The notes: generated by a model from the letters alone, not told the origin. Shown: positions 47,480 to 64,000, numbered from the stretch's first letter. The stretch: 64,000 nucleotides of DNA from Immundisolibacter sp. (GCF_050250495.1 NZ_JBFWOM010000004.1:22553-86552), one strand, 5' to 3'. Numbers and translations are program-made.

Positions 47480-48985
47480 TCAGGCGCCGCTCTCGCGCAG
47501 CAGCCGGTCGACCATGGCCTGGTATTGGCCGCGGCGGGGCGTGAAGTAGTGCAGCTGGCGCGACAGGAACGGGTCGCCGGCAAAGAAGATCTCGTAGATC
47601 TCCTGCCGGCCGCCGAACTCGCCGGCCACGGCGTCCCAGGCGAGCTTCATCACCTGCACCCGCTCGCGGGCGCTGGCCTGCTCGTTGCCGAGGAACTGTT
47701 CGAGGTCGCCGGCGGTGGCCGGGTTGTCGAAATCGGCCGCGGTTGCGGTCATCACCAGGCTCGAACTGCCCATCAGGCGGATCAGCTCGTTGACCTTGGT
47801 GTTCACCTCGGGCAGGAAGAACCGCAGCATCGAGATGCCGACCATGCCGCGGCTTGGCGAGGCAAACAGCGAGGCCGTCTCGCGCGCCACGTCCTCCAGC
47901 ACGAAGCCGGGGTCGGTCTGCTTGGCGAACTCTTCCTGCGCGTGGACCACGAGCTCCCGGGCGCTCGCCTCGACCAGGCCGTCGGCGATCTCGTTCAGCG
48001 CCAGGAACTCGCCCAGCAGCTCCTGGTAGCGCGGCAGCGCACTGCGCCCCAACACGTCCGCCATCTTGCAGGCGAGCCCGGTCATGAAGCGCAGCTTGGC
48101 GCGCCCGCGGGCGTTGGCCTGCAGCAGCAGGTAGCCCGGAAAGCTCGGCGCCATCATGTTGTAGGCGACGATGTCGCGGTAGATGAAGACCCGCTCCCAG
48201 GGCACCAGCACGTCCTCGAACACGGCCAGCGCGTCGCCCTCGTCGAAACGCTCGGCGAGCGGGCGGTCGTAGCGGCTGCCACCGCGGGCGTAGCTCTCGC
48301 GGGCGATGAACTTCAGGCCCGGCGTTGCCACCGGCACGGCGAAGCAGAGCGCGTAGTCCTCCTCGCCCGGCCGGCGCGGCATGAACGGACCGACCCAGAT
48401 CTCGTTGCTGACCGGCGCCAGCGTGGACAGCATGCGCGCGCCGCTGACGACGATGCCGGCGTCGGTCTCGCGCACCACTTTCAGCGCCCGCTGCGCGGAC
48501 AGGTCCTTGCCGTAATCGCGCTTGGGATCGACCAGCGTGTGGGTGAGGCAGATGTCCTCGTCGCGGCAGTATTCCCAGTAGCGGATGGCGTTGTCGGCAA
48601 ACGCCTTGTCCCTGTGCCCCAGCACGTGCGGGGCGATCACCGCCGCGTCGGTGACGAAGGCGTTCATGAAATCCGGCAGGCGGCCCATCAGGCCGTAGGT
48701 CGCTTCCTTGCGCAGCGACTCGCCACGCAGGCGCTGCTGCACCTCATCCCAGGTGCGCGCGGGCAGGAAGGAATTGCTGACCGGCCGGCCGTCCTTGGGC
48801 GACGCGTAGGTGTAGTCGGCTTGCAGGTCCGGCCGGTGGAAGGCGTCGTAGTGCTCGCCGATGCTGGCGAGGATGCCGGCGAGCGGCGCGTACTGGGTGA
48901 CATCTCCCACGCGCTGGCCGGCGATGTACAGCGCCCGGTCGTCCTTGAGGCTCGCGATGTACTGCGCGCCTGTCCTGATACCCAT
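47480..48985 (-). CDS. 4-hydroxyphenylacetate 3-hydroxylase (HpaB/TcpA-like) family oxygenase
   Basis: RTGAQYIASLKDDR..YI.G..V, GRLPDFMN, VVRETDAGIVVSGARMLSTLA, RFDEGDA..VFEDVLVPWERVF, FGGRQEIYEIF. Confidence 0.88.
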   Translation of the reverse strand: MGIRTGAQYIASLKDDRALYIAGQRVGDVTQYAPLAGILASIGEHYDAFHRPDLQADYTYASPKDGRPVSNSFLPARTWDEVQQRLRGESLRKEATYGLMGRLPDFMNAFVTDAAVIAPHVLGHRDKAFADNAIRYWEYCRDEDICLTHTLVDPKRDYGKDLSAQRALKVVRETDAGIVVSGARMLSTLAPVSNEIWVGPFMPRRPGEEDYALCFAVPVATPGLKFIARESYARGGSRYDRPLAERFDEGDALAVFEDVLVPWERVFIYRDIVAYNMMAPSFPGYLLLQANARGRAKLRFMTGLACKMADVLGRSALPRYQELLGEFLALNEIADGLVEASARELVVHAQEEFAKQTDPGFVLEDVARETASLFASPSRGMVGISMLRFFLPEVNTKVNELIRLMGSSSLVMTATAADFDNPATAGDLEQFLGNEQASARERVQVMKLAWDAVAGEFGGRQEIYEIFFAGDPFLSRQLHYFTPRRGQYQAMVDRLLRESGA

Positions 48986-49076: not shown

Positions 49077-50963
49077 TCAGGCGCCGAGCGCCAGCGCCGC
49101 GCGGTAGGTGATGAACGACGCCAGGTACGCGAGCGCGAACAGGTAACCCGCCGTCAGCGCCGCCCAGCGCCAGCCGCCGGTCTCGCGGCGGATCACGGCC
49201 AGCGTGCTCAGGCACTGCGGCGCGAACACGTACCAGACCAGCAGCGACAGCGCGGTGGCGAGACCCCAGTCCTGCGCGATCAGCGGCGCGAGCGCGCCGG
49301 CGGTGTCCTCGCCGGTGGCCGACAGCGCGTAGACGGTGCCGAGCGCACCGACCGCCACCTCGCGCGCCGCGAGACCCGGCACCAGCGCGATGCTGATCTG
49401 CCAGTTGAAGCCGATCGGCTCGAAGATCACCGCGAGCCACCGGCCGAGAATGCCGGCCAGGCTGTACTCGATGGCGGGTCCGGTCGCGCCCGGCGGCGGC
49501 GCCGGGAAGCTGGCCAGAAACCACATCGCCACCGTCAGCACGAGGATGATGCCGCCCACCCGGCGCACGAAAATCGCCACCCGCTGCCATAGGCCAATCG
49601 CCACGTTGCGCAGCGCCGGCAGGTGGTACATGGGCAGTTCCATCATCAGCGTGCGCACCTGGCGCCGGGCCGTGAGGCGCTTGAGCACCCAGGCCACCGC
49701 CAGCGCGCCGGCAATCCCGGCCACGTACAGCGCCAGCAGCACCAGACCCTGCAACTCCAGCCCACCCCACACCTGCCGCCGCGGGATGAAGGCGCCGATC
49801 AGCAGCGCGTACACGGGAAGGCGCGCCGAGCAGGTCATCAGCGGCGCGATCAGGATGGTCACCAGCCGGTCGCGCGGGTTGGCGATGGTGCGCGCGGCCA
49901 TGATGCCCGGGATGGCGCAGGCAAAGCTCGACAGCAGCGGGATGAACGAGCGGCCCGACAGGCCGACGCCGCCCATCAGCCGGTCCAGCAGAAACGCCGC
50001 CCGCGGCAGGTAGCCGGATTCCTCCAGCACCAGGATGAAGAAAAACAGAATCACGATCTGCGGCAGGAACACCAGCACCCCGCCTGCACCGGCGATGACG
50101 CCGTCCACCAGCAGGCTGCGCAGCCAGTTGTCCGGCAGCAGCGCGGTCACAAAGTTGCCGGCTGAGGCAGTGGCGGCCTCGATCCAGCCCATCGGCGCCT
50201 CGGCCCAGGCGAACACGGCCTGGAACACCAGAAACAGCACCGCCGTCAGCAGCAGCGGGCCGAACACGGGGTGCAGCACCACGCGGTCGATGCGGTCGCT
50301 GGCCAGGTGCGGCACGGCCTCGTCGAGACCCAAGCGCTCCAGGATGGCGCGCACGGCGGCGTGGTCGCCGCGCGGGTCGGCTTCCGCGCCGGCTTCAATC
50401 TCGCCGGCGTAGTCGTGCCGGGGCCAGGTCGCGGGATCGCCCAGCAGCTCGCGCAAATCCACCGCACCGTCGCTCTTCACCGCCACGGTCGGGATGACCG
50501 GCACGCCGAGTTCGCGCGACAGCGCGCTGGGGTCGATCTTCAGCCCACGCCGGGCGGCCAGGTCCATCATGTTCAGCGCCACCACGCACGGCAGGCGCAG
50601 GCGCTTGGCGGCCAGCACCAGGCGCAGGTTGCGCCGCAGGTTCGTGGCGTCGACCACGCAGACCACGAGATCCGGCCGCTTCTCGCCCGCGGCGCGGCCG
50701 AGCAGCACGTCAGCCGTTACCCGCTCGTCGGGCGAGCGCGGGTGCAGGCTATAGGCGCCCGGCAGGTCCAGCACGCGCACGTCCTTGCCGGCGGAGGTGA
50801 AGCGGCCTTCCTTGCGCTCCACCGTCACGCCGGCGTAGTTGGCCACCTTCTGGCGGCTGCCGGTCAGCAGGTTGAACAGCGCCGTCTTGCCGCAGTTGGG
50901 GTTGCCGAGCAGCGCCACCAGCGGCTCCGCGCGCTGGAAGTGGATGACCGCCTCGCGGTTCAC
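49077..50963 (-). CDS. feoB: Ferrous iron transporter B
   Basis: GTG start at 50963. GNPNCGKT, NYAGVTVE, DLPGAY, EESGYLPRAAF, MTCSARLPVY. Confidence 0.95.
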   Translation of the reverse strand: MNREAVIHFQRAEPLVALLGNPNCGKTALFNLLTGSRQKVANYAGVTVERKEGRFTSAGKDVRVLDLPGAYSLHPRSPDERVTADVLLGRAAGEKRPDLVVCVVDATNLRRNLRLVLAAKRLRLPCVVALNMMDLAARRGLKIDPSALSRELGVPVIPTVAVKSDGAVDLRELLGDPATWPRHDYAGEIEAGAEADPRGDHAAVRAILERLGLDEAVPHLASDRIDRVVLHPVFGPLLLTAVLFLVFQAVFAWAEAPMGWIEAATASAGNFVTALLPDNWLRSLLVDGVIAGAGGVLVFLPQIVILFFFILVLEESGYLPRAAFLLDRLMGGVGLSGRSFIPLLSSFACAIPGIMAARTIANPRDRLVTILIAPLMTCSARLPVYALLIGAFIPRRQVWGGLELQGLVLLALYVAGIAGALAVAWVLKRLTARRQVRTLMMELPMYHLPALRNVAIGLWQRVAIFVRRVGGIILVLTVAMWFLASFPAPPPGATGPAIEYSLAGILGRWLAVIFEPIGFNWQISIALVPGLAAREVAVGALGTVYALSATGEDTAGALAPLIAQDWGLATALSLLVWYVFAPQCLSTLAVIRRETGGWRWAALTAGYLFALAYLASFITYRAALALGA

Positions 50964-51229
50964 GCCGCGGTCTCGACCAGCACGCAGGCGGCCTCGGCCC
51001 GGCGCAGCGCAAACGTGGAGCTGCCGATGCGCACCACCAGCGGATCGCCGCCCGGCAGCGCGCGCGCCAGCAGGCACACCGGCTCGCCGGGAATGAAACC
51101 GATCTCCTCCAGCCAGCGGCGCCACTCCGGCATGGCCTCCGGCACCCGCACGTCTACCACCAGCAGCGGCCGGTGCAGTTCCTGCCGGTCCAGCGTCGCT
51201 GGCGGCAACACGCGCGCGTTATCTGTCAT
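50960..51229 (-). CDS. feoA: Ferrous iron transport protein A
   Basis: RWLEEIGFIPGE...GGDPLVVRIGSSTFALRRAEA; overlaps the feoB start. Confidence 0.92.
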   Translation of the reverse strand: MTDNARVLPPATLDRQELHRPLLVVDVRVPEAMPEWRRWLEEIGFIPGEPVCLLARALPGGDPLVVRIGSSTFALRRAEAACVLVETAA

Positions 51230-51309: not shown

Positions 51310-51432
51310 GGAACGCCCGTCGCGCCGCACGTCGGTCTGCGGCGAAACGGGCACATCGAGGGCTCGGATGATCCGGCGCCACGGCTTGCCGACATTGACC
51401 GGCAGCAAGCCACGCGCCCGGTGTCGATCGAC

Positions 51433-52503
51433 TCAGGCTACCTTGGCGGCGCGCACCAGCGGCAGCAGCTTGCCGTGCATGCCACGCAGCAGCGACTCGG
51501 TGGTCGGCCAGTCGATGCATGGGTCCGTTACCGACACGCCGTACCGCAGCTGCGAGAGGTCCGCCGGGATCGGCTGGTTGCCGGCTTCGAGGTTGCTCTC
51601 CAGCATCAGGCCGACGATGGAGCGGTTGCCTTCCAGCATCTGGTTGACGCAGTTTTCCAGCACCAGCGCCTGCAGCTCGGGCTGCTTGTTGCAGTTGGCG
51701 TGGCTGCAATCGACCACGATGTTCTGTGGCAGCTTCGCCTTGGCGAGCGCCTGCTCGCACAGCGCCACGGCCACGGAGTCGTAATTCGGCCGGTCGTGGC
51801 CCCCGCGCAGCACCAGGTGCCCGTGCGGATTTCCGCGGGTGCGGATCACCGCCGACTGACCCTGCAGGTTGATGCCGAGAAAACTGTGCGGGCTCGCCGC
51901 CGACTTCATGGCGTTGACGGCGACATCAATGCCGCCGTCGGTGCCGTTCTTGAAACCGACCGCGGTCGACAGCCCACTCGACATCTCGCGGTGCGTCTGG
52001 GACTCGGTAGTGCGGGCGCCGATGGCGGTCCAGGTAATGAGGTCATGCAGGTACTGCGGCATGATCGGGTCGAGCGCCTCGGTGCCGGCTGGCAGGCCCA
52101 TCTCGGCGAGTTCCAGCAGCAGCTCGCGCGCCTTGATGACACCTTCCTCGATGTGGAAGGAATCGTCCATGCGCGGGTCGTTGATGAGGCCCTTCCAGCC
52201 GGTCGACGTGCGCGGCTTCTCGAAGTACACGCGCATGATGATGAGCAGCGTGTCCTTGACCTCCTGCGAGAGCGCGTGCAGACGGCGCGCGTAGTCGCGG
52301 GCAGCGTCGAGGTCGTGAATCGAGCACGGACCGACCACCACAAAGCGGCGCGGGTCGCGCCGATCGAGAATCGCCTCGACCGCGGCGCGACCTTCCAGCA
52401 CCGCGCGCTCGGCGGCCGGCGTCAGTGGCAGGCGCCCGCGCACCTCGGCCGGGGTCGGCATGAGCTGCTGCTCGACGACGTTGATATTGGTCAGCTTGTC
52501 CAT
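51433..52503 (-). CDS. Class I DAHP synthase (AroF/G/H family)
   Basis: VVVGPCSIHD, MRVYFEKPRT..GWKGLINDP, IGARTTESQTHRE, GFKNGTDG, DCSHAN, SVTDPC. Confidence 0.96.
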   Translation of the reverse strand: MDKLTNINVVEQQLMPTPAEVRGRLPLTPAAERAVLEGRAAVEAILDRRDPRRFVVVGPCSIHDLDAARDYARRLHALSQEVKDTLLIIMRVYFEKPRTSTGWKGLINDPRMDDSFHIEEGVIKARELLLELAEMGLPAGTEALDPIMPQYLHDLITWTAIGARTTESQTHREMSSGLSTAVGFKNGTDGGIDVAVNAMKSAASPHSFLGINLQGQSAVIRTRGNPHGHLVLRGGHDRPNYDSVAVALCEQALAKAKLPQNIVVDCSHANCNKQPELQALVLENCVNQMLEGNRSIVGLMLESNLEAGNQPIPADLSQLRYGVSVTDPCIDWPTTESLLRGMHGKLLPLVRAAKVA

Positions 52504-52586
52504 GGGCGGCACGGCCTGGCGGCAGATCGAAACGGGGTGCGGATTGTAGCGACTGGGTCGCGGCGCGGCTTGGCCGGCCCGAAACG

Positions 52587-52616
52587 CAAAACGCCCGGCA
52601 GGGCCCGGGCGTTTTG
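52587..52616 (-). terminator. Terminator-like hairpin downstream of tRNA-Val
   Basis: CAAAACGCCCGG-N6-CCGGGCGTTTTG, a 12-bp stem with A/T tails. Confidence 0.7.
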
Positions 52617-52625
52617 TTCGAAGAC

Positions 52626-52700
52626 TGGTGGGCGATGCTGGGATCGAACCAGCGACCCCTACCGTGTGAAGGTAGTGCTCTACCGCTGAGCTAATCGCCC
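52626..52700 (-). tRNA. tRNA-Val(CAC)
   Basis: Reverse complement GGGCGATTAGCTCAGCGGTAGAGCA-CTACC-TTCACAC-GGTAG-GGGTCGCTGGTTCGATCCCAGCATCGCCCACCA. Confidence 0.95.
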
Positions 52701-52846: not shown

Positions 52847-54262
52847 ATGACCGTTCGCAGCCGCTTCGCCCCAAGTCCCACCGGCTACCTGCACATCGGC
52901 GGCGCGCGCACGGCGCTGTTCGCCTGGCTGCACGCGCGCCACCACGGCGGCACGTTCATCCTGCGCATCGAGGACACCGACCGCGAGCGCTCCACCGAGG
53001 AATCGGTCAACGCCATCCTGGAAGGCATGGCCTGGCTCGGTCTCAACTACGACGAGGGGCCGTTCTACCAGACCCAGCGCTTCGACCGGTACCGGCAGGT
53101 GCTGGATCACCTGCTCGACGCCGGCCACGCCTACCGCTGCTACTGCACGCCCGACGATCTCGCCGCCCGGCGCGAGGCGCAGCTCGCGCGCAAGGAAAAG
53201 CCGCGCTACGACGGCCGCTGCCGGAATCTCGCCGCGCCGCCGGCGGGCAACCCGCCGTCGGTGGTCCGCTTTCGGAATCCGCAGGACGGCGACGTGGTGG
53301 TGGACGACCTCATCCGCGGCCGCGTCGCCTTCAGCAACACCGAACTCGACGACCTGGTGCTCGCGCGCAGCGACGGCACGCCCACCTACAACTTCACCGT
53401 GGTGGTGGACGACATGGACATGGGCGTGAGCTGCGTCATCCGCGGCGACGACCACCTCAACAACACGCCCCGGCAGATCAACATCCTGCGCGCGCTCGGC
53501 GCGCCGCTGCCGCAGTACGCGCACGTGCCGATGATCCTGGGTCCGGACGGCGCGCGGCTGTCGAAGCGCCACGGCGCGGTCAGCGTGCTGCAGTACCGCG
53601 ACGACGGCATCCTGCCCGAGGCGCTGCTGAATTACCTGGTGCGCCTGGGCTGGTCGCACGGCGACCAGGAAGTGTTCTCGCTCGACGAGCTGGTGACGAA
53701 GTTCGACGTGGAGCAGGTCAACCGCGCCGCGGCGGCGGTGAATCCTGAAAAGCTGCTGTGGCTGAACCAGCATTACCTGAAGACCGCCGACCCGGACCAT
53801 ATCGCCCGCCACCTCAGCCCCTTCATCGGCCGCCACGGCGTCGATCCGGCGCTGGATGGCCCACCGCTGCCCGCGGTGGTCGTGGCGCTGCGCGAGCGGT
53901 GCAAGACGCTGGTCGAGATGGCCGACAAGGCGCTGTTGTTCTATCGCGAGTTCGATGGCTACGACCCCGCGGCCGTGGCCAAGCACTTCAGCGCCGCTGT
54001 TCTCGAACCGCTGATCGGCCTGCACACGCGCCTTGAGCAGCTCGCCGACTGGCAAGCGCCGGCGCTGCACGCCGTGGTGGAAGAGGTCGCAGCGCAGCAC
54101 GGCCTCAAGTTCGGTCAGCTCGCCCAGCCGCTGCGCGTCGCCCTGTGCGGCAACGCCGTGTCGCCTGCCATCGACGTGACGCTGCAACTGATCGGCCGCG
54201 GCCGGGTGCTCGGGCGGCTTGAACGCGCCGTGCAGTGGCTGCAAAGCCAAGCCGGCGCTTGA
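52847..54262 (+). CDS. gltX: Glutamate--tRNA ligase
   Basis: RFAPSPTGYLHIGG, LRIEDTD, IRGDDHLNNT, RLSKRHG. Confidence 0.97.
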   Translation: MTVRSRFAPSPTGYLHIGGARTALFAWLHARHHGGTFILRIEDTDRERSTEESVNAILEGMAWLGLNYDEGPFYQTQRFDRYRQVLDHLLDAGHAYRCYCTPDDLAARREAQLARKEKPRYDGRCRNLAAPPAGNPPSVVRFRNPQDGDVVVDDLIRGRVAFSNTELDDLVLARSDGTPTYNFTVVVDDMDMGVSCVIRGDDHLNNTPRQINILRALGAPLPQYAHVPMILGPDGARLSKRHGAVSVLQYRDDGILPEALLNYLVRLGWSHGDQEVFSLDELVTKFDVEQVNRAAAAVNPEKLLWLNQHYLKTADPDHIARHLSPFIGRHGVDPALDGPPLPAVVVALRERCKTLVEMADKALLFYREFDGYDPAAVAKHFSAAVLEPLIGLHTRLEQLADWQAPALHAVVEEVAAQHGLKFGQLAQPLRVALCGNAVSPAIDVTLQLIGRGRVLGRLERAVQWLQSQAGA

Positions 54263-54303
54263 CACTGCGCCGGCCGGATCAGTAAAGTTCGCGCCCCTTG
54301 CAT

Positions 54304-54379
54304 GGGGCCATAGCTCAGCTGGGAGAGCGCAACACTGGCAGTGTTGAGGTCGGCGGTTCGATCCCGCCTGGCTCCACCA
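54304..54379 (+). tRNA. tRNA-Ala(GGC)
   Basis: GGGGCCATAGCTCAGCTGGGAGAGCG-CAACA-CTGGCAG-TGTTG-AGGTCGGCGGTTCGATCCCGCCTGGCTCCACCA. Confidence 0.95.
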
Positions 54380-54423
54380 AATCCCCCGCGCGGCGGGCGC
54401 GAGCCCGCCCGATCGATCTGCAA

Positions 54424-54499
54424 GTCCCCATCGTCTAGAGGCCTAGGACACTGCCCTTTCACGGCGGCAACAGGGGTTCGAATCCCCTTGGGGACGCCA
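54424..54499 (+). tRNA. tRNA-Glu(TTC)
   Basis: GTCCCCATCGTCTAGAGGCCTAGGACA-CTGCC-CTTTCAC-GGCGG-CAACAGGGGTTCGAATCCCCTTGGGGACGCCA. Confidence 0.95.
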
Positions 54500-55290
54500 T
54501 TCATGCAAATCGCGCGCTTGGCCGGCCAGCACGCCGACCGACGCCAGCGATCCCCGGAGCAATCCGGGCTTCGATGCTTGCCCCCCGGCGAACTCAAGCG
54601 CCAGAACCCCCTACCGTCGGCCCTGCGCCGTAGCAATGCGGCGCGGCGGGCACACCCGGGGCTGTCCATGGTTCCAGGCGTCGTCTACGTCCTGCCCTAC
54701 CGTCTCATCGAAGACAGCAAAAAAGCTGGGCAAAGCTGAACAAAAAAATGAGCGTTCAACCCTAACGAGTCAAACGTATTAGCAAAATTTAATATATGGT
54801 GTCTCACGCAAACCGTGAGGCGCCGCAGGGAGGGGCCAGATGCGTGGGGACGACCAGTTGCTGGCGGCCAATAGGTCTTTTGGCGTGGATCACTTTGATT
54901 CGCGTTTAGCCATGCTGTCCCGACGCCAACGAGGCATCCGTCTCGACTCGATAGACCGCGCCGAAAAACGCTCATGGGCGCAACCGGAACAAGGGATCGA
55001 CCAAGCGGTTGCGGCACGAAGCCGGGCCCTGCCCGAGCACCGACATCAGCGCGCTCCCCGCATTCCCCCGGTAAACGGCTCCCGCGCTCGGCATACGCCC
55101 GGCCCAGGCGCGCCGGCCCGCTCAGCACGGGATGGCTTGGCCGCCACCGCAGCCCGCGAATCAAACACAGCCGGTCCTCAAACCCAAGCCAGGATTGGCT
55201 TCGAAGCGTCCCAAAGGACGCCGCACAGTTCTCGGTGACCGTTACGGTCGCCTCTCCACAGCCCTGCACGTGTCAACGAGGAAGGTAGAC

Positions 55291-57186
55291 ATGCGCCCGA
55301 CGAATCCCCCCCAGTCGCCACTTGCAACGCCGCAGGCCGAGGCCGAGACCACCCTTGAAGGGGGTGAACTGATCGTCCACTACCTGCGCCAGATCGGCGT
55401 CGAGTACGTCTTCGGCGTGCTGGGCGGGGCCATCGAGCCGCTGGTGAACGCCCTCGCGCGCGACATGCGCCGCGGCGGGCCGGAGCTGATCGTCGCCCGG
55501 CACGAGGCCGGCGCGGCCTTCATGGCCGACGGTTACGCGCGGGAAACCGGCAAGCTCGGCGTGTGCTTCGCCACTACCGGGCCTGGCGCCACCAACATGA
55601 TTACCGGCGTCGCCGCGGCTTATCACAACCGCAACCCGGTACTCGCCATCACCGCCCAGACGCGGCTGGAAACCTTCGGCCGTGGCGCCATGCAGGAATG
55701 CAGCGACACTGCCATCGACACAGTGGGCATGTACCAGCACTGCACCCGCTACAACACGCTGGTGTCACACCCGAAGCAACTCGAAAACAAGCTGATCGCC
55801 GCCGTCCTCAACACGGCCCGTGATCCCCATGGTCCAAGCCACCTGGCGGTGCCGCTGGATGTGATGCGCACCCGCATCGACGTCGATCGCGCGGTCGATC
55901 TGAACGCCATCTTGCGCAGCCGCCCCGGCATCGATGAGGACGCCACGGCAGCCCTGGCGCAGACGCTGCTAAACGCCCGCCAGCCGGTGTTCTTGATCGG
56001 CGAGGGCGCCCGTGGGGCGTGCGGCCGCGTCCTGGCCCTCGCCATGGCGCTGCAGGCGCCGGTACTCGTCACTCCCCATTCGAAAGGCTTTGTCAGCTCG
56101 TTTCACCCGTGTTTCCGGGGCGTTTTCGGTTTATCTGGGCACCAAAGTGCCGAACAGGTTCTCGCGGACCCGGCGGTCGATTGCGTCGTGGCTATAGGGT
56201 GCAGTCTTGGCGAATGGGCTACGGCAGGTTGGGACCGCACTGCGCTGCTGAACCCCCGCCTGATCCATGTGGACAGCAATCCGGAGAATTTCCGCAATTC
56301 GGCCATGGCCCGGCTTCATGTGCTCGGCGATCCAGGCGCGGTGTTTGAGCGTATCGATGCGCTCACCGGAGATGCGGCAGGGGCGCGCAGGGGCAGCGTC
56401 GCGCCCCCCAAAGCGGTCAAGCCCACCCTGCACCTCATCGCCGATAAACCCGTACACCCGCTCCCGAATTGCACCTTGGACGACCCGGCCGAGTGGCACT
56501 CCGATGCGACGCCGATCAAGCCACAGCGGTTGATGCGCGATCTGCCGGCACTGCTGCCAGCCGGCACCCGTTACATCACGGACGGCACCGCGGCCAAAGG
56601 CTGGGCGTTGCACTACCTCCACATTCCGGACCGGCGCGTCGCCGAACGGCGCGCGGCCAGCGGCGCGCTGCAATCCGCGGCCGCGCCCGCGGCCGCGCAG
56701 CGCATGGCAGACCGCCGGAAAGAAGCCGCCGGACTGGTCCGAACCTCGATGGAATTCAGCTGTATGGGCTGGGCCATCGGCCACACCCTGGGGGCCGCTT
56801 GCGCCCGCCGCGACACGCCGGTGGTGTGCCTGACCGGTGACGGCAGCATGCTCATGAACAGCCAGGAAATCACCGTCGCGGCCGAACATCGGCTGCCGGT
56901 GTTTTTCGTCGTGCTGAACGATTCCGCGCTCGGCACCATCCGGCATGGGCAGGTGCTGGGCGGTGCAGAGCAGATCGGCTGGGAGTTGCCTGAGGTCGAC
57001 TTTGCCCTCATGGCCAAAGCGATGGGCGTCAAAGGCTACGTCGTTCGAACGCCACAGGATCTGCAAGATATTGACTGGCATGGCCTCTGGCAGCGCGGGG
57101 AACCGGCCGTGATAGACGTGCGGATCGACCGCGATGCGGTGCCGCCGATCAAACAGCGGATGAAGTCCCTGGGTGTCGGACATTGA
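55291..57186 (+). CDS. Thiamine diphosphate-dependent enzyme (acetolactate synthase-like superfamily)
   Basis: Start ATG 55291 after GAGGAAGG. VEYVFGVLGG, ARHEAGAAFMADG catalytic Glu, TTGPGATN, LTGDGSMLMN...VVLNDSALG ThDP motif. Confidence 0.9.
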   Translation: MRPTNPPQSPLATPQAEAETTLEGGELIVHYLRQIGVEYVFGVLGGAIEPLVNALARDMRRGGPELIVARHEAGAAFMADGYARETGKLGVCFATTGPGATNMITGVAAAYHNRNPVLAITAQTRLETFGRGAMQECSDTAIDTVGMYQHCTRYNTLVSHPKQLENKLIAAVLNTARDPHGPSHLAVPLDVMRTRIDVDRAVDLNAILRSRPGIDEDATAALAQTLLNARQPVFLIGEGARGACGRVLALAMALQAPVLVTPHSKGFVSSFHPCFRGVFGLSGHQSAEQVLADPAVDCVVAIGCSLGEWATAGWDRTALLNPRLIHVDSNPENFRNSAMARLHVLGDPGAVFERIDALTGDAAGARRGSVAPPKAVKPTLHLIADKPVHPLPNCTLDDPAEWHSDATPIKPQRLMRDLPALLPAGTRYITDGTAAKGWALHYLHIPDRRVAERRAASGALQSAAAPAAAQRMADRRKEAAGLVRTSMEFSCMGWAIGHTLGAACARRDTPVVCLTGDGSMLMNSQEITVAAEHRLPVFFVVLNDSALGTIRHGQVLGGAEQIGWELPEVDFALMAKAMGVKGYVVRTPQDLQDIDWHGLWQRGEPAVIDVRIDRDAVPPIKQRMKSLGVGH

Positions 57187-57992
57187 CCACTCCCCCCAAA
57201 GAGGTCATCCACACCCGCATCTGGGAAGAGACCGCCGAGGCCGACAACCCGTTCGCGGCCGTCGCCTGCCATTGCCGCGGGTACGACGTATACGGCGACC
57301 TGCTGCACAAGGCAAGCTTCATCGAATACCTATATCTGCTGTTAGTGGGGGAACGCCCGACGCCCATGCAAGCGCAGTTGCTGGAGCGGCTCGCGATCGC
57401 GCTCGCCAACCCCGGCCCGCGCGAGGCAAGCGTGCATGCCGCCATGTGCGCCGGCGTCGGCGGCTCACCGGCGGCCGCCATGTTGATGGCGGCGCTCGGC
57501 GTCGGTGCCGGCAACCTCGGCGGCGGCCACGAGGTGCGGGTGGCGCTGGAAGCATGGGAGCAGTTCGGCTGCGATATCGCGGCCTGGCAGACATTCTTCA
57601 ATGACCCGCCCAAGCCACAGCGCGCAGACATCTGGACCCCAATGGAACATGCGCCGGGGTTCGATCCACATGGCGTAGGTTGCGCCACACCGGTACTGCA
57701 AACATTGCAGGCACTTGCTGCGCTTGCGGCGGGCCCGCACCTGCCCTGGCTAGCCGAACACCGACTCACGCTGGAAGCCGTCGCCAAGGCACCGCTCGCC
57801 ATGTCCGGCGTCGCCGCGGCGGCTTGTCGGGACATGGGCCTCGACGCCGACCAGGGCGAAATGCTCTACCTGTTGCTGCGCCTGCCCGGCGCCGCAGCTC
57901 ACGCGCTGGAGCAGAAGCACTCCGGCTTCAAGCGCTTTCCGTTCTTTCACGGCGCGGTCAAGTACGTCGGGGCACGCGCCGATAACCCGTGA
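57183..57992 (+). CDS. Citrate synthase / citryl-CoA lyase-fold protein A (divergent)
   Basis: CRGYDVYGDLL, SFIEYLYLLLVGERPT, GNLGGG, PGF, LYLLLRLPGAAAHALEQ follow the citrate synthase fold. TTG start overlaps the upstream TGA. Confidence 0.7.
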   Translation: MTTPPKEVIHTRIWEETAEADNPFAAVACHCRGYDVYGDLLHKASFIEYLYLLLVGERPTPMQAQLLERLAIALANPGPREASVHAAMCAGVGGSPAAAMLMAALGVGAGNLGGGHEVRVALEAWEQFGCDIAAWQTFFNDPPKPQRADIWTPMEHAPGFDPHGVGCATPVLQTLQALAALAAGPHLPWLAEHRLTLEAVAKAPLAMSGVAAAACRDMGLDADQGEMLYLLLRLPGAAAHALEQKHSGFKRFPFFHGAVKYVGARADNP

Positions 57993-58005
57993 CGGGGACC
58001 GTGCC

Positions 58006-58800
58006 ATGACCAACGCCACACTTCTTGAGTACGAAGACCACTGGCCGACCGAGCTCGGCGGCGTTTCTGTCGTCGATGGAACGGTCACGTTCCGCGGGCA
58101 CGACCTGCTGAACGCGCTCGAAGACCTGAGCTGGATGGACCTGCTGATGTATGGCATCACCGGACGCCGCTTCAGCCAGGCCCAGCTCGAACTGTTTCAG
58201 GGCTTGTGGAAAATCTCCGTCAGCTACCCGGAGCCGCGCATCTGGAACAACCGGGTCGCAGCGCTGGGCGGAAGTACGCGCAGCCCGGGTGGATTGTCAC
58301 TGGGCGCAGCGATTGCAGTGACCGACGCCGCCATCTATGGCCAGCGGCCAATGATCGGGGCTTTCGATTTCCTGCAACGGGCACACGCGGCCCATGAACA
58401 CGGCACAGTACTTGAGGATTTTATTACTCGCGAGCTGAAAACCCATCGCACCATCCCCGGCTACGGCAGACCCATCCGCAGCGTGGATGAACGTTTGGCG
58501 CCTGCCGAGCGTTTGGCAAAGCGACTCAGTCTGTGGGGTGGGCCCTACACGCAACTGTCTGTTGAGGTCGCCGAGGTACTGAAGGATTACCGCATGGGCA
58601 TGAACGTCGCGGCGATCGCAGCGGCGCTTTATGCCGACCAAGGCCTCACGACCACCGAATACAACTACGCGACTCTGCTCGCGTTCAGCGCCGGTCAGAT
58701 TGTTTGCCACATGGACGCGCGCGCTCACCCACCGGGAGCATTATTCCCATTGCGGTGTGATCGCATCGCTTACCAAGGCCCGTCTCGGCGCGGCTGGTAA
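58006..58800 (+). CDS. Citrate synthase / citryl-CoA lyase-fold protein B (divergent)
   Basis: VTFRGHDLL, SWMDLLMYGITGRR, IPGYGRP...DERL, MNVAA, IAYQGPSRRGW C-terminus typical of the fold. Confidence 0.75.
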   Translation: MTNATLLEYEDHWPTELGGVSVVDGTVTFRGHDLLNALEDLSWMDLLMYGITGRRFSQAQLELFQGLWKISVSYPEPRIWNNRVAALGGSTRSPGGLSLGAAIAVTDAAIYGQRPMIGAFDFLQRAHAAHEHGTVLEDFITRELKTHRTIPGYGRPIRSVDERLAPAERLAKRLSLWGGPYTQLSVEVAEVLKDYRMGMNVAAIAAALYADQGLTTTEYNYATLLAFSAGQIVCHMDARAHPPGALFPLRCDRIAYQGPSRRGW

Positions 58801-58829
58801 CACTGCCAAGCTTTTCATGGAGTCCGGTT

Positions 58830-60971
58830 ATGCCGCTGGAAAATGTACTGAAGCGACGCGGTCACTACATTGTCGCGACTTTATTTTCTACGCTCGGCGG
58901 CTTCGCCAGCTTCTACGTCAGTGCGCAGACCGATGACGAAGCGGCGCTCGCCGAAATTTACGGCAGTGCCGAGATGGTGAGCATTGCTACCGGCATTACG
59001 CAACCACTGCGCCAAAGCCCCGCCATTGCAAGCGTTGTCACAGCGGAAGACATGGCGGCCATCGGCGCCACGGAACTGAACGAAGTGCTGGAAACCATTC
59101 CTGGACTGCACGTGGGCGTGTCTGGTGTCGGATACAAGCCGATTTTCTCGGTCAGAGGCATTCATACCCAGAGCAATCCGCAGATCCTCGTATTGATCAA
59201 CGGCCTGCCGATCAAGAACGTATTTGACGGCTCGCTGGGTTCCTCATGGGGCCGCATGCCGGTGACCGGCATCGCGCGTATCGAGGTCATCCGAGGCCCT
59301 GGCTCGGCGTTGTACGGCGCGGACGCCTTTTCGGGCGTGATCAACATCATCACCAAGACAGCGGCCGACGTGCGGGGCCTGGAAGTCGGCGCCCGGGCAG
59401 GCTCGTTCGACCGAAATGACCAATACACGCAATGGGGCGGCGATGTGGGCGGCTTCGCCTCCTATTTTTATCTCGAACGCCAACGCAGCGATGGCCAGAG
59501 CCGCACCATCACTGCTGATGCTCAAACTTTTCTGGATGGCGTGTTGGGGTCAAACGCATCTGTCGCCCCGGCGGCAGTTAATCTCAACGCAGACAATATC
59601 GAAGCACGGGCTGACATCAGTCGCGGATTCTGGCGACTTCGCGGGGGCTATCAGGAAGTTAATGACATCGGGGTTGGCGCTGGTGTTGCCCAAGCACTGG
59701 ATCCGACGGGGCGTGGGGACGGACGGCGCTTGAGCGCCGACCTGAGCTATGACAACGCATCGTTCGGAAAAAGCCTTGGCCTGACTGGTACTCTGAGCTA
59801 CTACAATGTCGAAAATGTTGCGCGACTGACCTTATTCCCGCCAGGTGCCTTCGGAACGGTATTCCCCGGCGGCTTCCCCAACGGGGTGATTGGCAATCCC
59901 GACGTCTACGAGCGTCACTACCGGGGTGAGTTGAGCGCCCTGTACACTGGCATCGACAAACATCGGCTGCGTCTCGGCGGTGGATATCGCAAGGAAGACC
60001 TGTACAAAGTAGAAGAAAGTCGAAACTACACCGTGGTTGATCTTGGCCCTCCGTTTGGCACGGTACCCTTCCCGCTCGGCGGACTTGTCGACGTCACCGA
60101 TGTTGCCGCCTTTGTGCGCGAGGAAAACCGCACGGTTGCGTACGCCTTTCTGCAGGACGAATGGAACTTCCGCCGCGACTGGACGCTGACTGCCGGTCTG
60201 CGGATGGATGATTACTCCGACTTTGGCACCACGCTGAATCCCCGATTGGCGCTGGTCTGGCAGACGAGCTATACCCTGACGACCAAGCTGCTCTATGGCC
60301 GCGCCTTCCGCGCGCCGTCTTTCGGCGAGCTTTACAACGTCAACAACCCTGCCAATATCGGCAATCCCTCCCTGGACCCCGAAACCATCGACACAGTTGA
60401 ACTCGGCTTCGACTGGGATGCCGGCCGCGGCGTCCGCGCGGCGGTGAACGTTTTCTACTACCGCATGGACGACATCATCCGCTTTTCGACCGATCCGGCG
60501 CCGGCCACCAGCGCCACCGCCCAAAACACCGGCAAACAAACCGGCTACGGCCTGGAAGCGGAGCTGTCCTGGCAGGCGTCGCGGCGCCTGCGCCTGTCCG
60601 GCAATTACGCCTATCAGAAATCTACCGACGAAGCGGCCGACGACGACGTGGGTTTCGCGCCGACCCACCTGGCGTACGCGCGGGCGGACTGGACCTTCAC
60701 GCCGCAGTGGGGCGTGTCGAGTCAGGCGGTTGGAGTGTTCGACCGCAAGCGTGCGCCGGGGGACACCCGATCCAAAGTCGACGATTACGTATCGTTCGAC
60801 CTCACGCTGCGCGGGCAGCGGCTGTTCGGCGACGACTGGGGCATGCGATTATCTGCCCGCAACCTTTTCAACAGCGACGTGCGCGAACCCAGCGCCTCGG
60901 CGCTCATCCCGAACGATCTGCCGATGGCCGGGCGCAACGTGTTTTTAGAACTCAGCAAGGCGTTTCCTTGA
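58830..60971 (+). CDS. TonB-dependent receptor (plug + beta-barrel)
   Basis: SVVTAEDM...LNEVLETIPG, ILVLINGLP, RIEVIRGPGSALYGADAFSGVINIITK plug motif; LTAGLRMDDY, YGRAFRAPS, LDPETI, RNLFN barrel motifs. Confidence 0.93.
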   Translation: MPLENVLKRRGHYIVATLFSTLGGFASFYVSAQTDDEAALAEIYGSAEMVSIATGITQPLRQSPAIASVVTAEDMAAIGATELNEVLETIPGLHVGVSGVGYKPIFSVRGIHTQSNPQILVLINGLPIKNVFDGSLGSSWGRMPVTGIARIEVIRGPGSALYGADAFSGVINIITKTAADVRGLEVGARAGSFDRNDQYTQWGGDVGGFASYFYLERQRSDGQSRTITADAQTFLDGVLGSNASVAPAAVNLNADNIEARADISRGFWRLRGGYQEVNDIGVGAGVAQALDPTGRGDGRRLSADLSYDNASFGKSLGLTGTLSYYNVENVARLTLFPPGAFGTVFPGGFPNGVIGNPDVYERHYRGELSALYTGIDKHRLRLGGGYRKEDLYKVEESRNYTVVDLGPPFGTVPFPLGGLVDVTDVAAFVREENRTVAYAFLQDEWNFRRDWTLTAGLRMDDYSDFGTTLNPRLALVWQTSYTLTTKLLYGRAFRAPSFGELYNVNNPANIGNPSLDPETIDTVELGFDWDAGRGVRAAVNVFYYRMDDIIRFSTDPAPATSATAQNTGKQTGYGLEAELSWQASRRLRLSGNYAYQKSTDEAADDDVGFAPTHLAYARADWTFTPQWGVSSQAVGVFDRKRAPGDTRSKVDDYVSFDLTLRGQRLFGDDWGMRLSARNLFNSDVREPSASALIPNDLPMAGRNVFLELSKAFP

Positions 60972-61004
60972 TCGCTCCGGCCTGCCCTTGGCTCGGTTGA
61001 ACGA

Positions 61005-61943
61005 ATGCACCTCATGGCGCAGCGGATTGCCGGGGGCTTGCGCGGGCGGGGTTTGCCTGGCCGGCTGATCGCGTTCGCCGCGCTTCTCGCGACCGGACTG
61101 TCCGCGGCGGCGGCGGACGTGCTTGCCATCGTCCCGGACGTGAGTGAACCGTACCGGGCGGTGCTGTATCAGATTGTCGATGGCATGCGCCGCAGCGCCT
61201 CCGTGCGCCTGGTGCAGATTCCATCCGGGGCCGACCCGGGCCAGCCGGCGCTGACAGTGGAGGGAGAACGGGTGGTGATCGCGCTGGGCGGCACCGCTGC
61301 ACAGGCAGCCGACGCGCTGCGCACACGCCTGCCCGTGGTGGCGGGCGCGGTGGTGGCGCCGACCGGAATGCCGCCGCTACCGGGAGTGAGCCTGGAGACC
61401 GACCCGGAAGCGCTGTTCAAGCATCTGACCGCCCTGCTGCCGACCATCCGTACGGTGCACTGGCTGTACCGCCCGGAGCGCAGCGGCTGGATGCTCGATC
61501 GTGCGCAGGCGGCCGCCCGCCACTCCAGGCTGAAGCTGGTTGTCGTGGCCGTCGACAACGCCCGCTCGGCCGCGCAGCGCTATCAAGAAATTCTCGACCG
61601 CGCCGATAGCCAGACTGACGCGGTGTGGCTGAGTCAGGATCCGGCGCTGATCGGGGCTGATTCGACCCTGCCGGATATTCTTGGCCGGGCCTGGGCGCGC
61701 AATATCGTGGTTTTTTCGGGGTCAGTGCAGCACGTGTCGCACGGGGTGCTGTTCGCGCTTTATCCGGACAACACGGCAATGGGTGAGAACCTGGCGCGCC
61801 TGGCGCTTGCCCATGCCGGCGGAGCGCCGTTCACCTTCGAGCCCAACCGTGAGCTACAGAGCGCAATCAACCGACGCACCGCGGAACATCTTGGCATCGC
61901 GCCCGAACTCGCGCGGTATGACCTTGTGCTGCCGGCCCGCTGA
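61005..61943 (+). CDS. Periplasmic substrate-binding-like protein (ABC_sub_bind / YfiR-like)
   Basis: Signal-peptide-like N-terminus; VIALG, GVSL..DP...F..L..LLP.IR.V..LY, DAVW...DP, GVLFALYPDN.AMG..LA..A, IN.RTA.HLG pattern. No cognate ABC permease or ATPase nearby. Confidence 0.7.
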   Translation: MHLMAQRIAGGLRGRGLPGRLIAFAALLATGLSAAAADVLAIVPDVSEPYRAVLYQIVDGMRRSASVRLVQIPSGADPGQPALTVEGERVVIALGGTAAQAADALRTRLPVVAGAVVAPTGMPPLPGVSLETDPEALFKHLTALLPTIRTVHWLYRPERSGWMLDRAQAAARHSRLKLVVVAVDNARSAAQRYQEILDRADSQTDAVWLSQDPALIGADSTLPDILGRAWARNIVVFSGSVQHVSHGVLFALYPDNTAMGENLARLALAHAGGAPFTFEPNRELQSAINRRTAEHLGIAPELARYDLVLPAR

Positions 61944-61966
61944 GCCCCACTGCGACCATTGACCCC

Positions 61967-64000
61967 ATGAACCCGCTGCGCCCGCTGATCGATCGAGTCG
62001 CCGCCCTGCGCAGCGACGTGCTGATCATGTTGGTGTCAGCGGCCGGCGTATTGCTGCTGGCCGCACTGGCCGCGGGTGGCATTTCGTGGATTTCCGTCAA
62101 CCGTGCACGCGGCGACCTGCTGAACCAGGGACGCTTGCTGGCGGAGCGGTACGCCGCGCAGTCCACCCTCGCCTTGCTGTACGGTGCCCCGGACAATGCT
62201 CGGACGGCGAGCGACGGCTTGCTGCGATTCCCGAATGTGGTCGGCGTCGCCATCTATGACGCCGACGGCTCGACGCTGCTGCAGGAAGGCAACGTCGGCG
62301 CCGCCCGTCCGCAGCCGCAAGGAGCGTGGTCCAGCACCACGGCCGCGCGCATGGTCGAGGACGGTAGCGAGCGCTGGCTGTTCCAGGCACCGGTGTTTGT
62401 GGGTGCCGCCAGCGCGGAGTTGACGGCGTTCGGCGAACCCGCCTCGCCCCCCCAGTATCAGGGGCAGGTGACGGTCGCCGTGAGCAAGGCGGCGCTGCGG
62501 CAAATTGCCCGCGACATCATCGTATCCGCGGCAACCATGAGCGCGCTGACAGCGCTGGTGCTGCTGCCGGCGCTGCTGTACATCCTGCAACACATCTCGC
62601 AACCGATTCAGGCTCTCGCACGGGTGATGGCGAGGACCGAGACCGGCGACCTCACGGCGCGGGCAAGGCTTGCCGGCCCAGAGGACGTGCGCCGCATGGA
62701 GCACGCCTTCAACAGCATGATGGACAGGCTGCAAGAGCGCGACCGTGAGCTGGTCGAGGCCCGCGACGTCGCCCTCAGCGCCGCGCGTCTTAAGGCGCAG
62801 TTCACCGCCAACGTGAGCCACGAAATCCGCACGCCGCTCAACGGCCTGCTCGGCATGCTGACCCTGCTGCGTGAGACGCAGCTCACGGCCAAGCAGCGCG
62901 AGCGCCTGACCATCGCCGAGGCATCCGGCCACACGCTGCTGACCCTCATCAACGACATTCTGGATTTTTCGCGCCTGGAATCGGGCCGGGTCGATCTCGA
63001 AGCCATTCCGTTCGACCTGCCCACCAAAATTGGCGAAGTGGCCGCCCTGTTCGAGCTGCAAACCCGCAACAAGCAGATCAGCCTCGACGTCGTCATCGCG
63101 CCCGACGTGCCGCAGTTCGTGACGGGCGACCCGGTGCGCCTGGGCCAGGTGGTGACCAACCTCATCGGCAACGCCGTCAAGTTCACCAACGCGGGCGGTG
63201 TCACGGTCGAGGTCGACTGCGTGCCGGACGTCGGCAGCCGCGTGCGCTTTCGGGTGACGGACACCGGCATCGGCATCGCCGAACAGGACATTGGCCGAAT
63301 CTTCCAGTCCTTCACCCAGGCCGACAGCTCCACCACGCGCCAGTTCGGTGGCTCGGGTCTTGGCCTGACCATCACCCGCCAGTTGGTGGAACTGATGGGT
63401 GGTGAGATCGACGTGCACAGCACCCCGGGACAGGGCAGCACGTTCAGTTTCTCGATGCCGCTTGAGCGCGCGCAGATCCCGGACGACTTCGACACGAACA
63501 GGGGCGTCGAGACGGCGGCTCTGGAGCCGGCGGACAGCCTGCACGTGCTGGTGGCCGAAGACAACGCCACCAATCAACTCGTCGCCAAGGGCCTGCTCGA
63601 AGCCTGCGGCTGCGAGGTGACGGTGGTCGCGGACGGCCAGGCGGCGGTCGACGCGTGGGCCCGGGGCCGCTACGACATGATCCTGATGGACTGCAACATG
63701 CCCGGCATGGACGGGCTTGAGGCAACCCGCCAAATCCGCGCCCAGGAGGCGCCCGGCGCGCGGCTCCCCATCGTGGCCATGACCGCCAATGTCGACGCCG
63801 AGCTGATCCAGCAGTGCTACGCGGCCGGCATGGACGACGCCCTGCCCAAGCCCATGCAGCTGCGCACCGTGCGCTTGCTGTTGGCGCGGTGGACAGGGCC
63901 GGAGACGCTGCCGGCACCGGCCGAGCCGGAGCCCGCCGACACACTCGACGCGGCCCACGCAGCCGCCGTGGTGAACACGGCGCTGCTTGGCGAATTGCAA
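61967..64000 (+). CDS. Hybrid sensor histidine kinase (periplasmic sensor, HAMP, HisKA, HATPase, REC), truncated by window end
   Basis: Manual translation from ATG 61967 (missing from the ORF track because there is no stop in the window): two TM segments, FTANVSHEIRTPLNG H-box, TNLIGNAVKFT, DTGIGI, GGSGLGL, VLVAEDN, ILMDCNMPGMDG, MTAN, LPKP. Confidence 0.93.
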   Translation, partial: MNPLRPLIDRVAALRSDVLIMLVSAAGVLLLAALAAGGISWISVNRARGDLLNQGRLLAERYAAQSTLALLYGAPDNARTASDGLLRFPNVVGVAIYDADGSTLLQEGNVGAARPQPQGAWSSTTAARMVEDGSERWLFQAPVFVGAASAELTAFGEPASPPQYQGQVTVAVSKAALRQIARDIIVSAATMSALTALVLLPALLYILQHISQPIQALARVMARTETGDLTARARLAGPEDVRRMEHAFNSMMDRLQERDRELVEARDVALSAARLKAQFTANVSHEIRTPLNGLLGMLTLLRETQLTAKQRERLTIAEASGHTLLTLINDILDFSRLESGRVDLEAIPFDLPTKIGEVAALFELQTRNKQISLDVVIAPDVPQFVTGDPVRLGQVVTNLIGNAVKFTNAGGVTVEVDCVPDVGSRVRFRVTDTGIGIAEQDIGRIFQSFTQADSSTTRQFGGSGLGLTITRQLVELMGGEIDVHSTPGQGSTFSFSMPLERAQIPDDFDTNRGVETAALEPADSLHVLVAEDNATNQLVAKGLLEACGCEVTVVADGQAAVDAWARGRYDMILMDCNMPGMDGLEATRQIRAQEAPGARLPIVAMTANVDAELIQQCYAAGMDDALPKPMQLRTVRLLLARWTGPETLPAPAEPEPADTLDAAHAAAVVNTALLGELQ

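Follow-up and report, generated by a model that had tools for sequence, protein, structure and literature searches.

An apparently uncharacterised, widely conserved operon that most likely couples ThDP-derived small-molecule synthesis to TonB-dependent recapture and c-di-GMP control

A 64,000-nt stretch of Immundisolibacter sp. DNA (GCF_050250495.1 NZ_JBFWOM010000004.1:22553-86552; called the window here) carries, from position 55291 to beyond its end at 64000, a block of six co-directional open reading frames (ORFs). These encode a thiamine diphosphate (ThDP)-dependent enzyme, two proteins with a citrate synthase (CS) fold that we call CS-A and CS-B, a TonB-dependent outer-membrane receptor (TBDR), a periplasmic binding protein of family PF04392 and a hybrid sensor kinase. 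The block represents a widely conserved and apparently uncharacterised operon. Most likely its products make a ThDP-derived small molecule, recapture it in a TonB-dependent manner and sense it in the periplasm, and through this sensing they control cyclic di-GMP (c-di-GMP). The content and order of the genes, their coupling, the integrity of the encoded domains, the conserved co-occurrence of enzyme and receptor genes and several natural gene fusions form the basis of this reading.

Conservation and layout of the six genes

We scanned one genome per species, taking the first 600 candidates, and obtained 233 matched stretches that encode a relative of CS-A, of which the best 80 loci were fetched. 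Judged by these matches, the cluster appears to recur in at least 80 species-level genomes. Gene order was then counted by tblastn with the window proteins at those 57 loci that offer at least 8.5 kb of sequence after CS-B. A TBDR gene directly follows the enzyme genes at 55 of the 57 loci and is their tightest partner. TBDR, binder and kinase genes are all found downstream of the enzymes at 46 loci, and at 44 loci all of them share one strand. A sequence-only reading of this DNA had proposed that the enzyme trio and the receptor-binder-kinase trio belong together; their co-occurrence across bacterial classes at 46 of 57 loci rules out the contrary outcome, specified in advance, in which the two trios do not travel together.

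The order seen in the window is reproduced exactly in Nitrosococcus halophilus Nc4 and Methylogaea oryzae, with the addition of a short-chain dehydrogenase/reductase (SDR) gene in both and an O-methyltransferase gene in Methylogaea. When ORFs were clustered across loci, six families alone proved common to the loci and the flanks varied, and thus the unit moves together. Carriers among the Gammaproteobacteria include Porticoccaceae, Hahella, Marinobacter, Oleiphilus, SAR92, Chromatiales and Thiotrichales, and those among the Betaproteobacteria include Collimonas, Gallionella, Dechloromonas, Rhodocyclaceae and Nitrosomonadales. Single loci come from Planctomycetota, Dongiaceae and Geobacterales. 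A tblastn comparison of CS-A with 72,556 plasmids gave zero matches.

The features of the block and of the region directly upstream are as follows, all on the plus strand.

54500..55290, +: upstream untranslated stretch from tRNA-Glu to the ThDP gene; Rfam finds two tRNAs only
55291-57186, +: ThDP-dependent carboligase-type enzyme, 631 amino acids (aa); ATG start; TPP_enzyme_N/M/C domains
57183-57992, +: CS-like protein A (CS-A), 269 aa; TTG start within ATTGA; PF00285; fold modelled with AlphaFold2 (AF2)
58006-58800, +: CS-like protein B (CS-B), 264 aa; matches to citryl-CoA-lyase models below cut-off; paralogue of CS-A
58830-60971, +: TBDR, 713 aa; signal peptide, plug and barrel
61005-61943, +: periplasmic binding protein PF04392, 312 aa; family profile; Sec signal peptide
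61967-64000, +: hybrid sensor kinase, first 678 of 1364 aa; HAMP-HisKA-HATPase-REC within the window

The co-directional arrangement and the junctions proposed in the sequence-only reading were reproduced at the same coordinates, with one 4-nt overlap and gaps of 13–33 nt elsewhere (CS-A/CS-B 13 nt, CS-B/TBDR 29 nt, TBDR/binder 33 nt and binder/kinase 23 nt). A ribosome-binding site, GAGGAAGG, at 55277-55284 precedes the ATG of the ThDP gene at 55291, and gene callers applied to identical contigs also give this protein a length of 631 aa. The TTG start of CS-A overlaps the ThDP stop codon by 4 nt, an arrangement that predicts translational coupling of CS-A to the ThDP gene. The supposition that no terminator interrupts the block also held, in that all terminator-like matches between 54000 and 64000 lie within coding sequence and their number (11, versus 7.4 ± 3.2 in shuffled sequences) shows no excess. 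On an identical contig (L001) the first gene 3′ of the kinase lies on the opposite strand, and the block thus ends at the kinase.

Synthesis genes and sensory genes

Pfam and NCBIfam profiles, together with fold comparison, agree with the domain assignments that had been made from the DNA alone (ThDP enzyme, two CS-fold proteins, TBDR, periplasmic binder and HAMP-HisKA-HATPase-REC kinase). The ThDP protein matches TPP_enzyme_N, TPP_enzyme_M and TPP_enzyme_C above the Pfam cut-offs (E values of 4e-38, 2e-27 and 3e-28, respectively), and in an alignment it keeps both the cofactor motif GDGS...LND and the HE(A)GA region of the catalytic Glu. With three domains and a cofactor motif, it belongs to the ThDP enzymes of the acetolactate-synthase/pyruvate-oxidase type. 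Its best matches in the PDB are BbmA/CsmA (8x3x, E value 8e-79; 8x3z, E value 3e-67), and Escherichia coli acetohydroxyacid synthase I is matched with an E value of 1e-54; benzaldehyde lyase and 2-hydroxyacyl-CoA lyase are also among the matches. The protein does not qualify as a biosynthetic acetolactate synthase large subunit (TIGR00118, 259.8 bits versus a cut-off of 538), and it likewise falls under the cut-offs of all other NCBIfam equivalogs. As far as homology indicates, its nearest solved relatives are biosynthetic carboligases. CybE, which is homologous to BbmA and CsmA, joins two 2-oxo acids, one of them aromatic, to form an alpha-hydroxy-beta-keto acid in furanolide biosynthesis (PMC12395478). 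At Nitrosococcus-type loci (L003 5343-7778; L087 1987-3571), genes for a Phos_pyr_kin (ThiD/PdxK-like) kinase and a family-3 methyltransferase are found just 5′ of the ThDP gene, and L003 additionally carries a ThiS-rhodanese-ThiF fusion.

CS-A scores 29.4 bits against PF00285 (cut-off 27), and both CS-A and CS-B match the NCBIfam citryl-CoA-lyase models far under their cut-offs. Profile matches to citryl-CoA lyase and to the CCL module of ATP-citrate lyase (ACLY) reach an E value of 7e-10. An AF2 model of CS-A based on an 87-sequence alignment has a mean confidence score (pLDDT) of 87; an earlier model from 12 sequences, with a pLDDT of 54, was not used. The best fold match of the model is 6hxp, with a TM-score of 0.66–0.69; over citryl-CoA lyase and the ACLY CCL module (6hxp, 6hxn, 6qcl) the scores span 0.65–0.69 at 15–18% identity. 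By fold, the CS-like proteins belong to the citrate synthase superfamily. CS-B is a distant paralogue of CS-A (hhalign probability 96%, 21% identity). CS-A shares both fold and size with citryl-CoA lyase and the ACLY CCL module. However, citryl-CoA lyase is a homo-oligomer, whereas two diverged paralogues are present here, and neither of the two retains the catalytic Asp or the first catalytic His.

The fate of the catalytic residues was traced by reference to H274, H320 and D375 of pig citrate synthase and to D1026 of ACLY (represented by D1026A mutant entries). At the H274 position CS-A has ANPGPR and CS-B has SYPDPR, and the D375 position is taken by Ser and Ala, respectively. CS-B has lost H320 and reads GYG-RP there; for CS-A, one of two conflicting alignments puts an invariant residue, H156, at the site of H320. 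Overall, CS-B is marked by the motifs SYPDPR, GYG-RP...DER and MNxAA and has none of the catalytic His, His and Asp residues. The His-His-Asp set of citrate synthases and citryl-CoA lyases is complete in neither protein. Because the catalytic Asp and at least one His are missing, CS-A and CS-B are not ordinary citrate synthases or lyases. An Arg is retained in the DPR motif of CS-B and in the RLPG motif of CS-A, and this pair would fit a single composite site in a CS-A/CS-B heterodimer.

Natural fusions join the ThDP enzyme to CS-A (P0203, 885 aa) and CS-A to CS-B (P0274, P0279 and P0302), and these support the prediction of a physical complex. The CS-A family is small, comprising 100 clusters (50% identity, E ≤ 1e-30) among 1.84 billion representatives, and its close homologues occur in Immundisolibacter (78–83% identity), Methylococcaceae and Nitrosococcus. 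In the Planctomycetota locus L027 (10837-12123), CS-B carries a C-terminal SRPBCC (Polyketide_cyc2) domain.

The receptor has the signal peptide, plug and 22-strand barrel domain of a TBDR, and its nearest solved relatives are CirA, BtuB, PirA and FepA. Pfam finds no N-terminal STN signalling domain, and there are no sigma or anti-sigma factor genes at the locus or among the conserved families; the protein is thus not a transducer of the FecA/FpvA type. The binder scores 32.3 bits against PF04392 (cut-off 25.9), also matches 3lft, and has a Sec signal peptide without a lipobox. In PF04392 binders of solved structure, the ligand is L-Trp, L-Tyr or L-Phe (PMC10443332). The sequence-only reading had remarked on the lack of an ABC permease beside the binder, and this was borne out: a permease or ATPase partner is absent in the window organism and among the conserved families of 83 loci. 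Because the binder has a signal peptide and the conserved families include no inner-membrane transporter, the gene set favours a role in periplasmic sensing rather than uptake.

The full-length kinase, taken from L001, has 1364 aa and is ordered as transmembrane segment, periplasmic domain (about aa 45-182, matching sCache_4 in orthologues), transmembrane segment, HAMP, HisKA, HATPase, REC, Hpt, REC, GGDEF and EAL. All relay residues of a phosphorelay hybrid kinase are present, namely H285 (nt 62819), D575, H720 and D843. Given that the protein ends in Hpt-REC-GGDEF-EAL, the predicted output of the system is c-di-GMP turnover. The EAL, DDFGTG and EGVE motifs expected of a phosphodiesterase are all intact. 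In the window lineage GSDEF stands at the GGDEF site, a departure from the GG[DE]EF signature of diguanylate cyclases, whereas 32 of 33 long orthologues have GGDEF. Since GSDEF replaces GGDEF while the EAL motifs are intact, the change in c-di-GMP turnover in this organism probably lies in hydrolysis.

The sensory genes are exchanged in some lineages while the enzyme genes are kept. In Hahella, in Marinobacter and in Oleiphilaceae and Thiotrichaceae metagenome-assembled genomes, the enzymes and the TBDR are retained, and the binder and kinase give way to a YfiR-like DUF4154 protein, a CHASE8-HAMP kinase, a stand-alone REC protein and a REC-GGDEF-EAL protein. At loci L009 and L011 a short kinase and the binder are encoded on the opposite strand, and a REC-REC-PAS-GGDEF-EAL gene stands before the ThDP gene. 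In a distant branch, which has no TBDR, CS-A and CS-B are fused, and their neighbours are a ThDP enzyme with 32% identity, dCache/GAF/PAS kinases and a binder of the SBP_bac_5 type. The presence of three unrelated binder/kinase types beside one enzyme set would be hard to explain unless the sensors read the product of the enzymes. Loci of the distant branch (L088 1056-3037; L090 4139-13189) also encode a conserved 121–124-aa protein with the motif CGSHGG...FNDAGxGK, which is fused to a CS-A-like domain in P0288.

A different kind of variant, L086 (4016-12426), encodes REC and REC-GGDEF-EAL proteins, two TBDRs (46–49% identical to the window TBDR), a PF04392 binder and a kinase, and may represent a receiver-only genome. 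This set directly precedes a row of bioA-bioF-bioH-bioC-bioD-like genes.

Genes of the kind that tailor natural products are inserted at a number of loci. These include SDR genes (10 loci), PF00891 O-methyltransferase genes (five loci), two sulfotransferase genes (L051) and the SRPBCC cyclase domain at L027. The enzymes all lack a signal peptide, and the conserved families include no transporter of the inner membrane; the cluster thus encodes no path by which imported material could reach the enzymes. Together with the tailoring genes, the lack of such a path favours biosynthesis over catabolism as the predicted role. The aromatic ligands of PF04392 binders, the kinship with CybE and the phenol-type methyl- and sulfotransferases lead us to guess that the product is aromatic. 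At the Rhodocyclaceae locus L051 (11396-14126), CS-B is followed by the two sulfotransferase genes and by three genes for TBDRs.

Surroundings of the block and expression

The 5′ neighbours of the block are gltX, tRNA-Ala and tRNA-Glu, followed by a 790-nt stretch without an Rfam match. Rfam detects no riboswitch in 54200-55400, where the two tRNAs are the only matches. Consensus sequences for Fur, Zur, sigma-54, lux and Pho boxes are not enriched over controls 5′ of the ThDP gene (71 loci plus the window), and the upstream region of the window has none of these boxes. A 132-aa ORF in the upstream gap (54840-55238, +) is called as a gene on contig L002 and not on L001, and is probably not a real gene. 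On L001 no ABC permease, exporter or transcription factor gene lies near the block.

Third-position GC content is 0.71–0.80 in the cluster genes (55291-61943), lower than the 0.91 of the adjoining gltX (52847-54262). This low value and a start directly after tRNA-Ala/tRNA-Glu could suggest a genomic island, but L001 has neither a tRNA-end repeat of at least 12 nt nor an integrase gene.

The sequence was found in metagenomes and metatranscriptomes only. Exact-match RNA contigs cover short stretches of all three enzyme genes (ThDP, CS-A and CS-B), and a further RNA contig (61847-62045) crosses the binder stop and the kinase start. Co-transcription is weakly supported by this one junction, which does not prove a single transcript.

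Elsewhere in the window, a type I restriction-modification locus (37424-45009) has its specificity and restriction subunit genes separated by additional genes. An hsdS-like ORF with a DUF559/MTES_1575 endonuclease-like domain is followed by Schlafen AlbA_2 + HATPase_c_4, RhuM+Fic and hsdR genes, and the whole looks like a small defence island. A 422-aa ORF without a Pfam match (51421-52689, +) overlaps tRNA-Val (52626-52700, −), and upstream of it are genes for FeoB (49077-51125, −) and an HpaB-type hydroxylase (47480-48985, −).

Explanations of the unit and known systems

We hold the case to be evenly poised that the six genes form one functional unit, in which a small-molecule synthase is joined to its own receptor and sensor and a self-made compound, sensed in the periplasm, sets c-di-GMP. 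In this model, the cytoplasmic ThDP enzyme would join two 2-oxo acids to give an alpha-hydroxy-beta-keto-acid or acyloin-type product, probably aromatic, and would work in complex with a CS-A/CS-B heterodimer that acts as product processor or non-catalytic partner. Other species would modify this product with an SDR, an O-methyltransferase, sulfotransferases or an SRPBCC cyclase. The compound would then exit the cell and be brought back to the periplasm by the TBDR of the cluster, where the PF04392 protein would bind it and dock on the periplasmic domain of the kinase. A relay from H285 through D575 and H720 to D843 would reach the REC-GGDEF-EAL end and alter c-di-GMP turnover. Such a circuit would report the external level of a shared self-made compound, and with it cell density, confinement or neighbours, to the control of biofilm versus motility.

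The sequence-only reading had already proposed a quorum-like circuit that makes, imports and senses a molecule. Its general outline gains from the co-occurrence of the two gene trios and from the tailoring genes, whereas its details need amending, because the output is a c-di-GMP relay and the CS pair lacks the canonical catalytic residues. We infer that a molecule is produced, exported, re-imported and sensed. Several observations weigh against this model. CS-A and CS-B may be pseudoenzymes, and a condensing role is doubtful given the catalytic residues that they have lost. The conserved set includes neither an exporter nor a transcription factor, so release and autoinduction are unsupported. 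It is also not evident why a small acyloin should depend on a TBDR for passage through the outer membrane. No sensor is within reach at four of the 57 loci (L027, L051, L056 and L069), and L086 has no ThDP or CS-like genes within 10 kb of its receptor and sensor genes. Finally, RNA support is thin, with low-level expression at best, and DNA carry-over could contribute to it.

A more specific claim, which we advance tentatively and with somewhat more doubt than belief, is that the cluster defines a new class of extracellular signal. Here a ThDP carboligase and a re-tooled citryl-CoA-lyase-fold heterodimer would make a compound that is recaptured by a TBDR and read by an orphan-binder phosphorelay into GGDEF-EAL. 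The same tentative claim holds that a YfiR-like or SBP_bac_5 protein serves as the alternative reader in other lineages, and that the carriers are nitrifiers, methanotrophs, iron oxidisers and hydrocarbon degraders, with the usual model organisms lacking the system.

Ranked second to self-sensing is the unlikely possibility of a metallophore-type public good, in which an alpha-hydroxy-carboxylate chelator would be made, its metal complex taken up by the TBDR, and uptake reported by binder and kinase to c-di-GMP. This would amount to siderophore-like signalling with a two-component relay instead of an anti-sigma factor. The close partnership of TBDR and enzymes at 55 of 57 loci, as in siderophore clusters, fits a metallophore as well as it fits a quorum signal; the receptor's relatives CirA, BtuB, PirA and FepA point the same way, and the CS fold hints at citrate-like ligands. 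In addition, an alpha-hydroxy-beta-keto acid carries a classical Fe(III)-binding group. However, Fur and Zur boxes are unenriched at 71 loci and absent from the window, there are no genes for nonribosomal peptide synthetases (NRPS) or NRPS-independent siderophore synthetases, and the conserved families lack an inner-membrane permease, a reductase and an exporter. The TBDR also has no STN domain, and O-methyltransferase and sulfotransferases would cap potential ligand groups. The signal and metallophore readings overlap, in that a recaptured public good can double as a signal.

It is decidedly unlikely that the product of the enzymes is an intracellular or envelope metabolite distinct from the sensed ligand, with the two gene sets linked by a shared programme such as biofilm matrix formation or a stress response. 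Such a separation would agree with the lack of an encoded exporter and with the occurrence of the L086 sensor set without enzymes. Small subunits regulate acetohydroxyacid synthase, and by analogy the CS pair may be pseudoenzymes that serve the ThDP enzyme as regulatory subunits; a stable complex of this kind agrees with the ThDP+CS-A fusion. Against this stand the three non-homologous binder/kinase types that adjoin the same enzymes and tailoring genes that differ by lineage, as pairs of product and receptor would. We consider it very unlikely that the TBDR imports a foreign compound, which is sensed by binder and kinase and degraded in the cytoplasm by the ThDP enzyme and the CS pair as lyase or decarboxylase. 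ThDP enzymes do include lyases and decarboxylases, with benzaldehyde lyase and 2-hydroxyacyl-CoA lyase among the matches here, the citryl-CoA-lyase fold is a cleavage fold, many carriers degrade hydrocarbons or C1 compounds, and one receiver-only locus exists (L086). Yet no inner-membrane transporter would carry substrate to enzymes in the cytoplasm, both CS-like proteins have lost the lyase catalytic Asp, and the closest ThDP relatives are carboligases. Moreover, the accessory functions (O-methyltransferase, sulfotransferase and SRPBCC cyclase) are of a kind typically seen in biosynthesis, and the output is c-di-GMP, with no transcription factor for catabolic genes. Chance adjacency or an annotation artefact is barely credible, as gene order and orientation are kept in Gammaproteobacteria and Betaproteobacteria amid unrelated flanks, and the genes overlap or are closely spaced and even fused.

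In its logic the proposed self-sensing unit is closest to ScrABC of Vibrio parahaemolyticus, which also comprises a signal enzyme, an orphan binder without a transporter and a membrane GGDEF-EAL protein. The scr operon encodes a presumed synthase of an extracellular ‘S-signal’, and its binder switches the c-di-GMP activity of the GGDEF-EAL protein. ScrA is an aminotransferase-type enzyme dependent on pyridoxal phosphate, whereas the block described here has a ThDP enzyme and two CS-fold proteins. ScrB is an SBP_bac_3 protein and ScrC a direct GGDEF-EAL sensor (PMC8050422); the block instead has a PF04392 binder, an extra TBDR and a His-Asp-His-Asp relay before GGDEF-EAL, and it is not a ScrABC system. 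PF04392 systems are absent from those listed in a review of signalling through binding proteins, which says nothing of TonB (PMC8050422).

Other known systems resemble parts of the unit. LuxS/LuxP-LuxQ (autoinducer 2) and CqsA/CqsS of Vibrio also have a self-made molecule sensed by a hybrid kinase, with a periplasmic binder in LuxPQ. However, the kinase core scores only 331 bits against the LuxQ model (cut-off 1200) and is not a LuxQ, and the LuxPQ and CqsS systems differ in binder family, sensor domain and synthase class, have no TBDR and signal to LuxU/LuxO. YfiBNR/HmsCDE and NspS-MbaA likewise place a membrane sensor, either a c-di-GMP enzyme or a kinase, under the control of a periplasmic protein. 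A YfiR-like DUF4154 protein is indeed present at variant loci, but the window has a PF04392 binder in its place and a TBDR instead of the YfiB lipoprotein, and those systems have no linked synthase. Siderophore signalling also uses a dedicated TBDR to turn recognition of a compound, self-made or scavenged, into a cellular signal. In FecA-FecR-FecI and FpvA-FpvR-PvdS, this involves an N-terminal signalling domain of the TBDR together with anti-sigma and extracytoplasmic function sigma factors, whereas here there is no signalling domain and the predicted relay runs from binder to kinase to c-di-GMP.

The CybE/CybF furanolide pathway includes the nearest solved relatives of the ThDP enzyme, and its products are small, aromatic and signal-like. 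Nostoclides, which are related to furanolides, are cell-density mediators in Nostoc (PMC9324945). CybF is ketosynthase-like and not CS-fold (PMC8777810), and no receptor or sensor genes are reported for cyb clusters. Neither the window nor the conserved families contain a CybF-type furanolide synthase, an acyl-CoA ligase or other cyb genes, and we rejected the identification of the block as a furanolide cluster because it has no ketosynthase-like partner gene. Our literature search returned no description of the six-gene cluster, with incomplete coverage of subscription journals, so an earlier account is possible. Two Caulobacter ‘citryl-CoA lyase’ papers concern CitE-type genes and are irrelevant to it.

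If the proposed self-sensing circuit is correct, it would extend bacterial cell–cell signalling by a synthase class and a chemical family that are both new. It would also provide a function for the PF04392 ‘orphan’ binder and for a CS-fold pair with an altered active site. To our knowledge, it would moreover be the first case in which the signal from a TBDR enters a two-component/c-di-GMP pathway instead of acting on an anti-sigma factor. The carriers include organisms of environmental weight, such as Nitrosococcus, Methylococcaceae, Gallionella, Dechloromonas, Porticoccaceae, Marinobacter, Hahella, Collimonas and Immundisolibacter. Control of biofilm formation or aggregation in these bacteria would bear on nitrification, methane oxidation and hydrocarbon clean-up.

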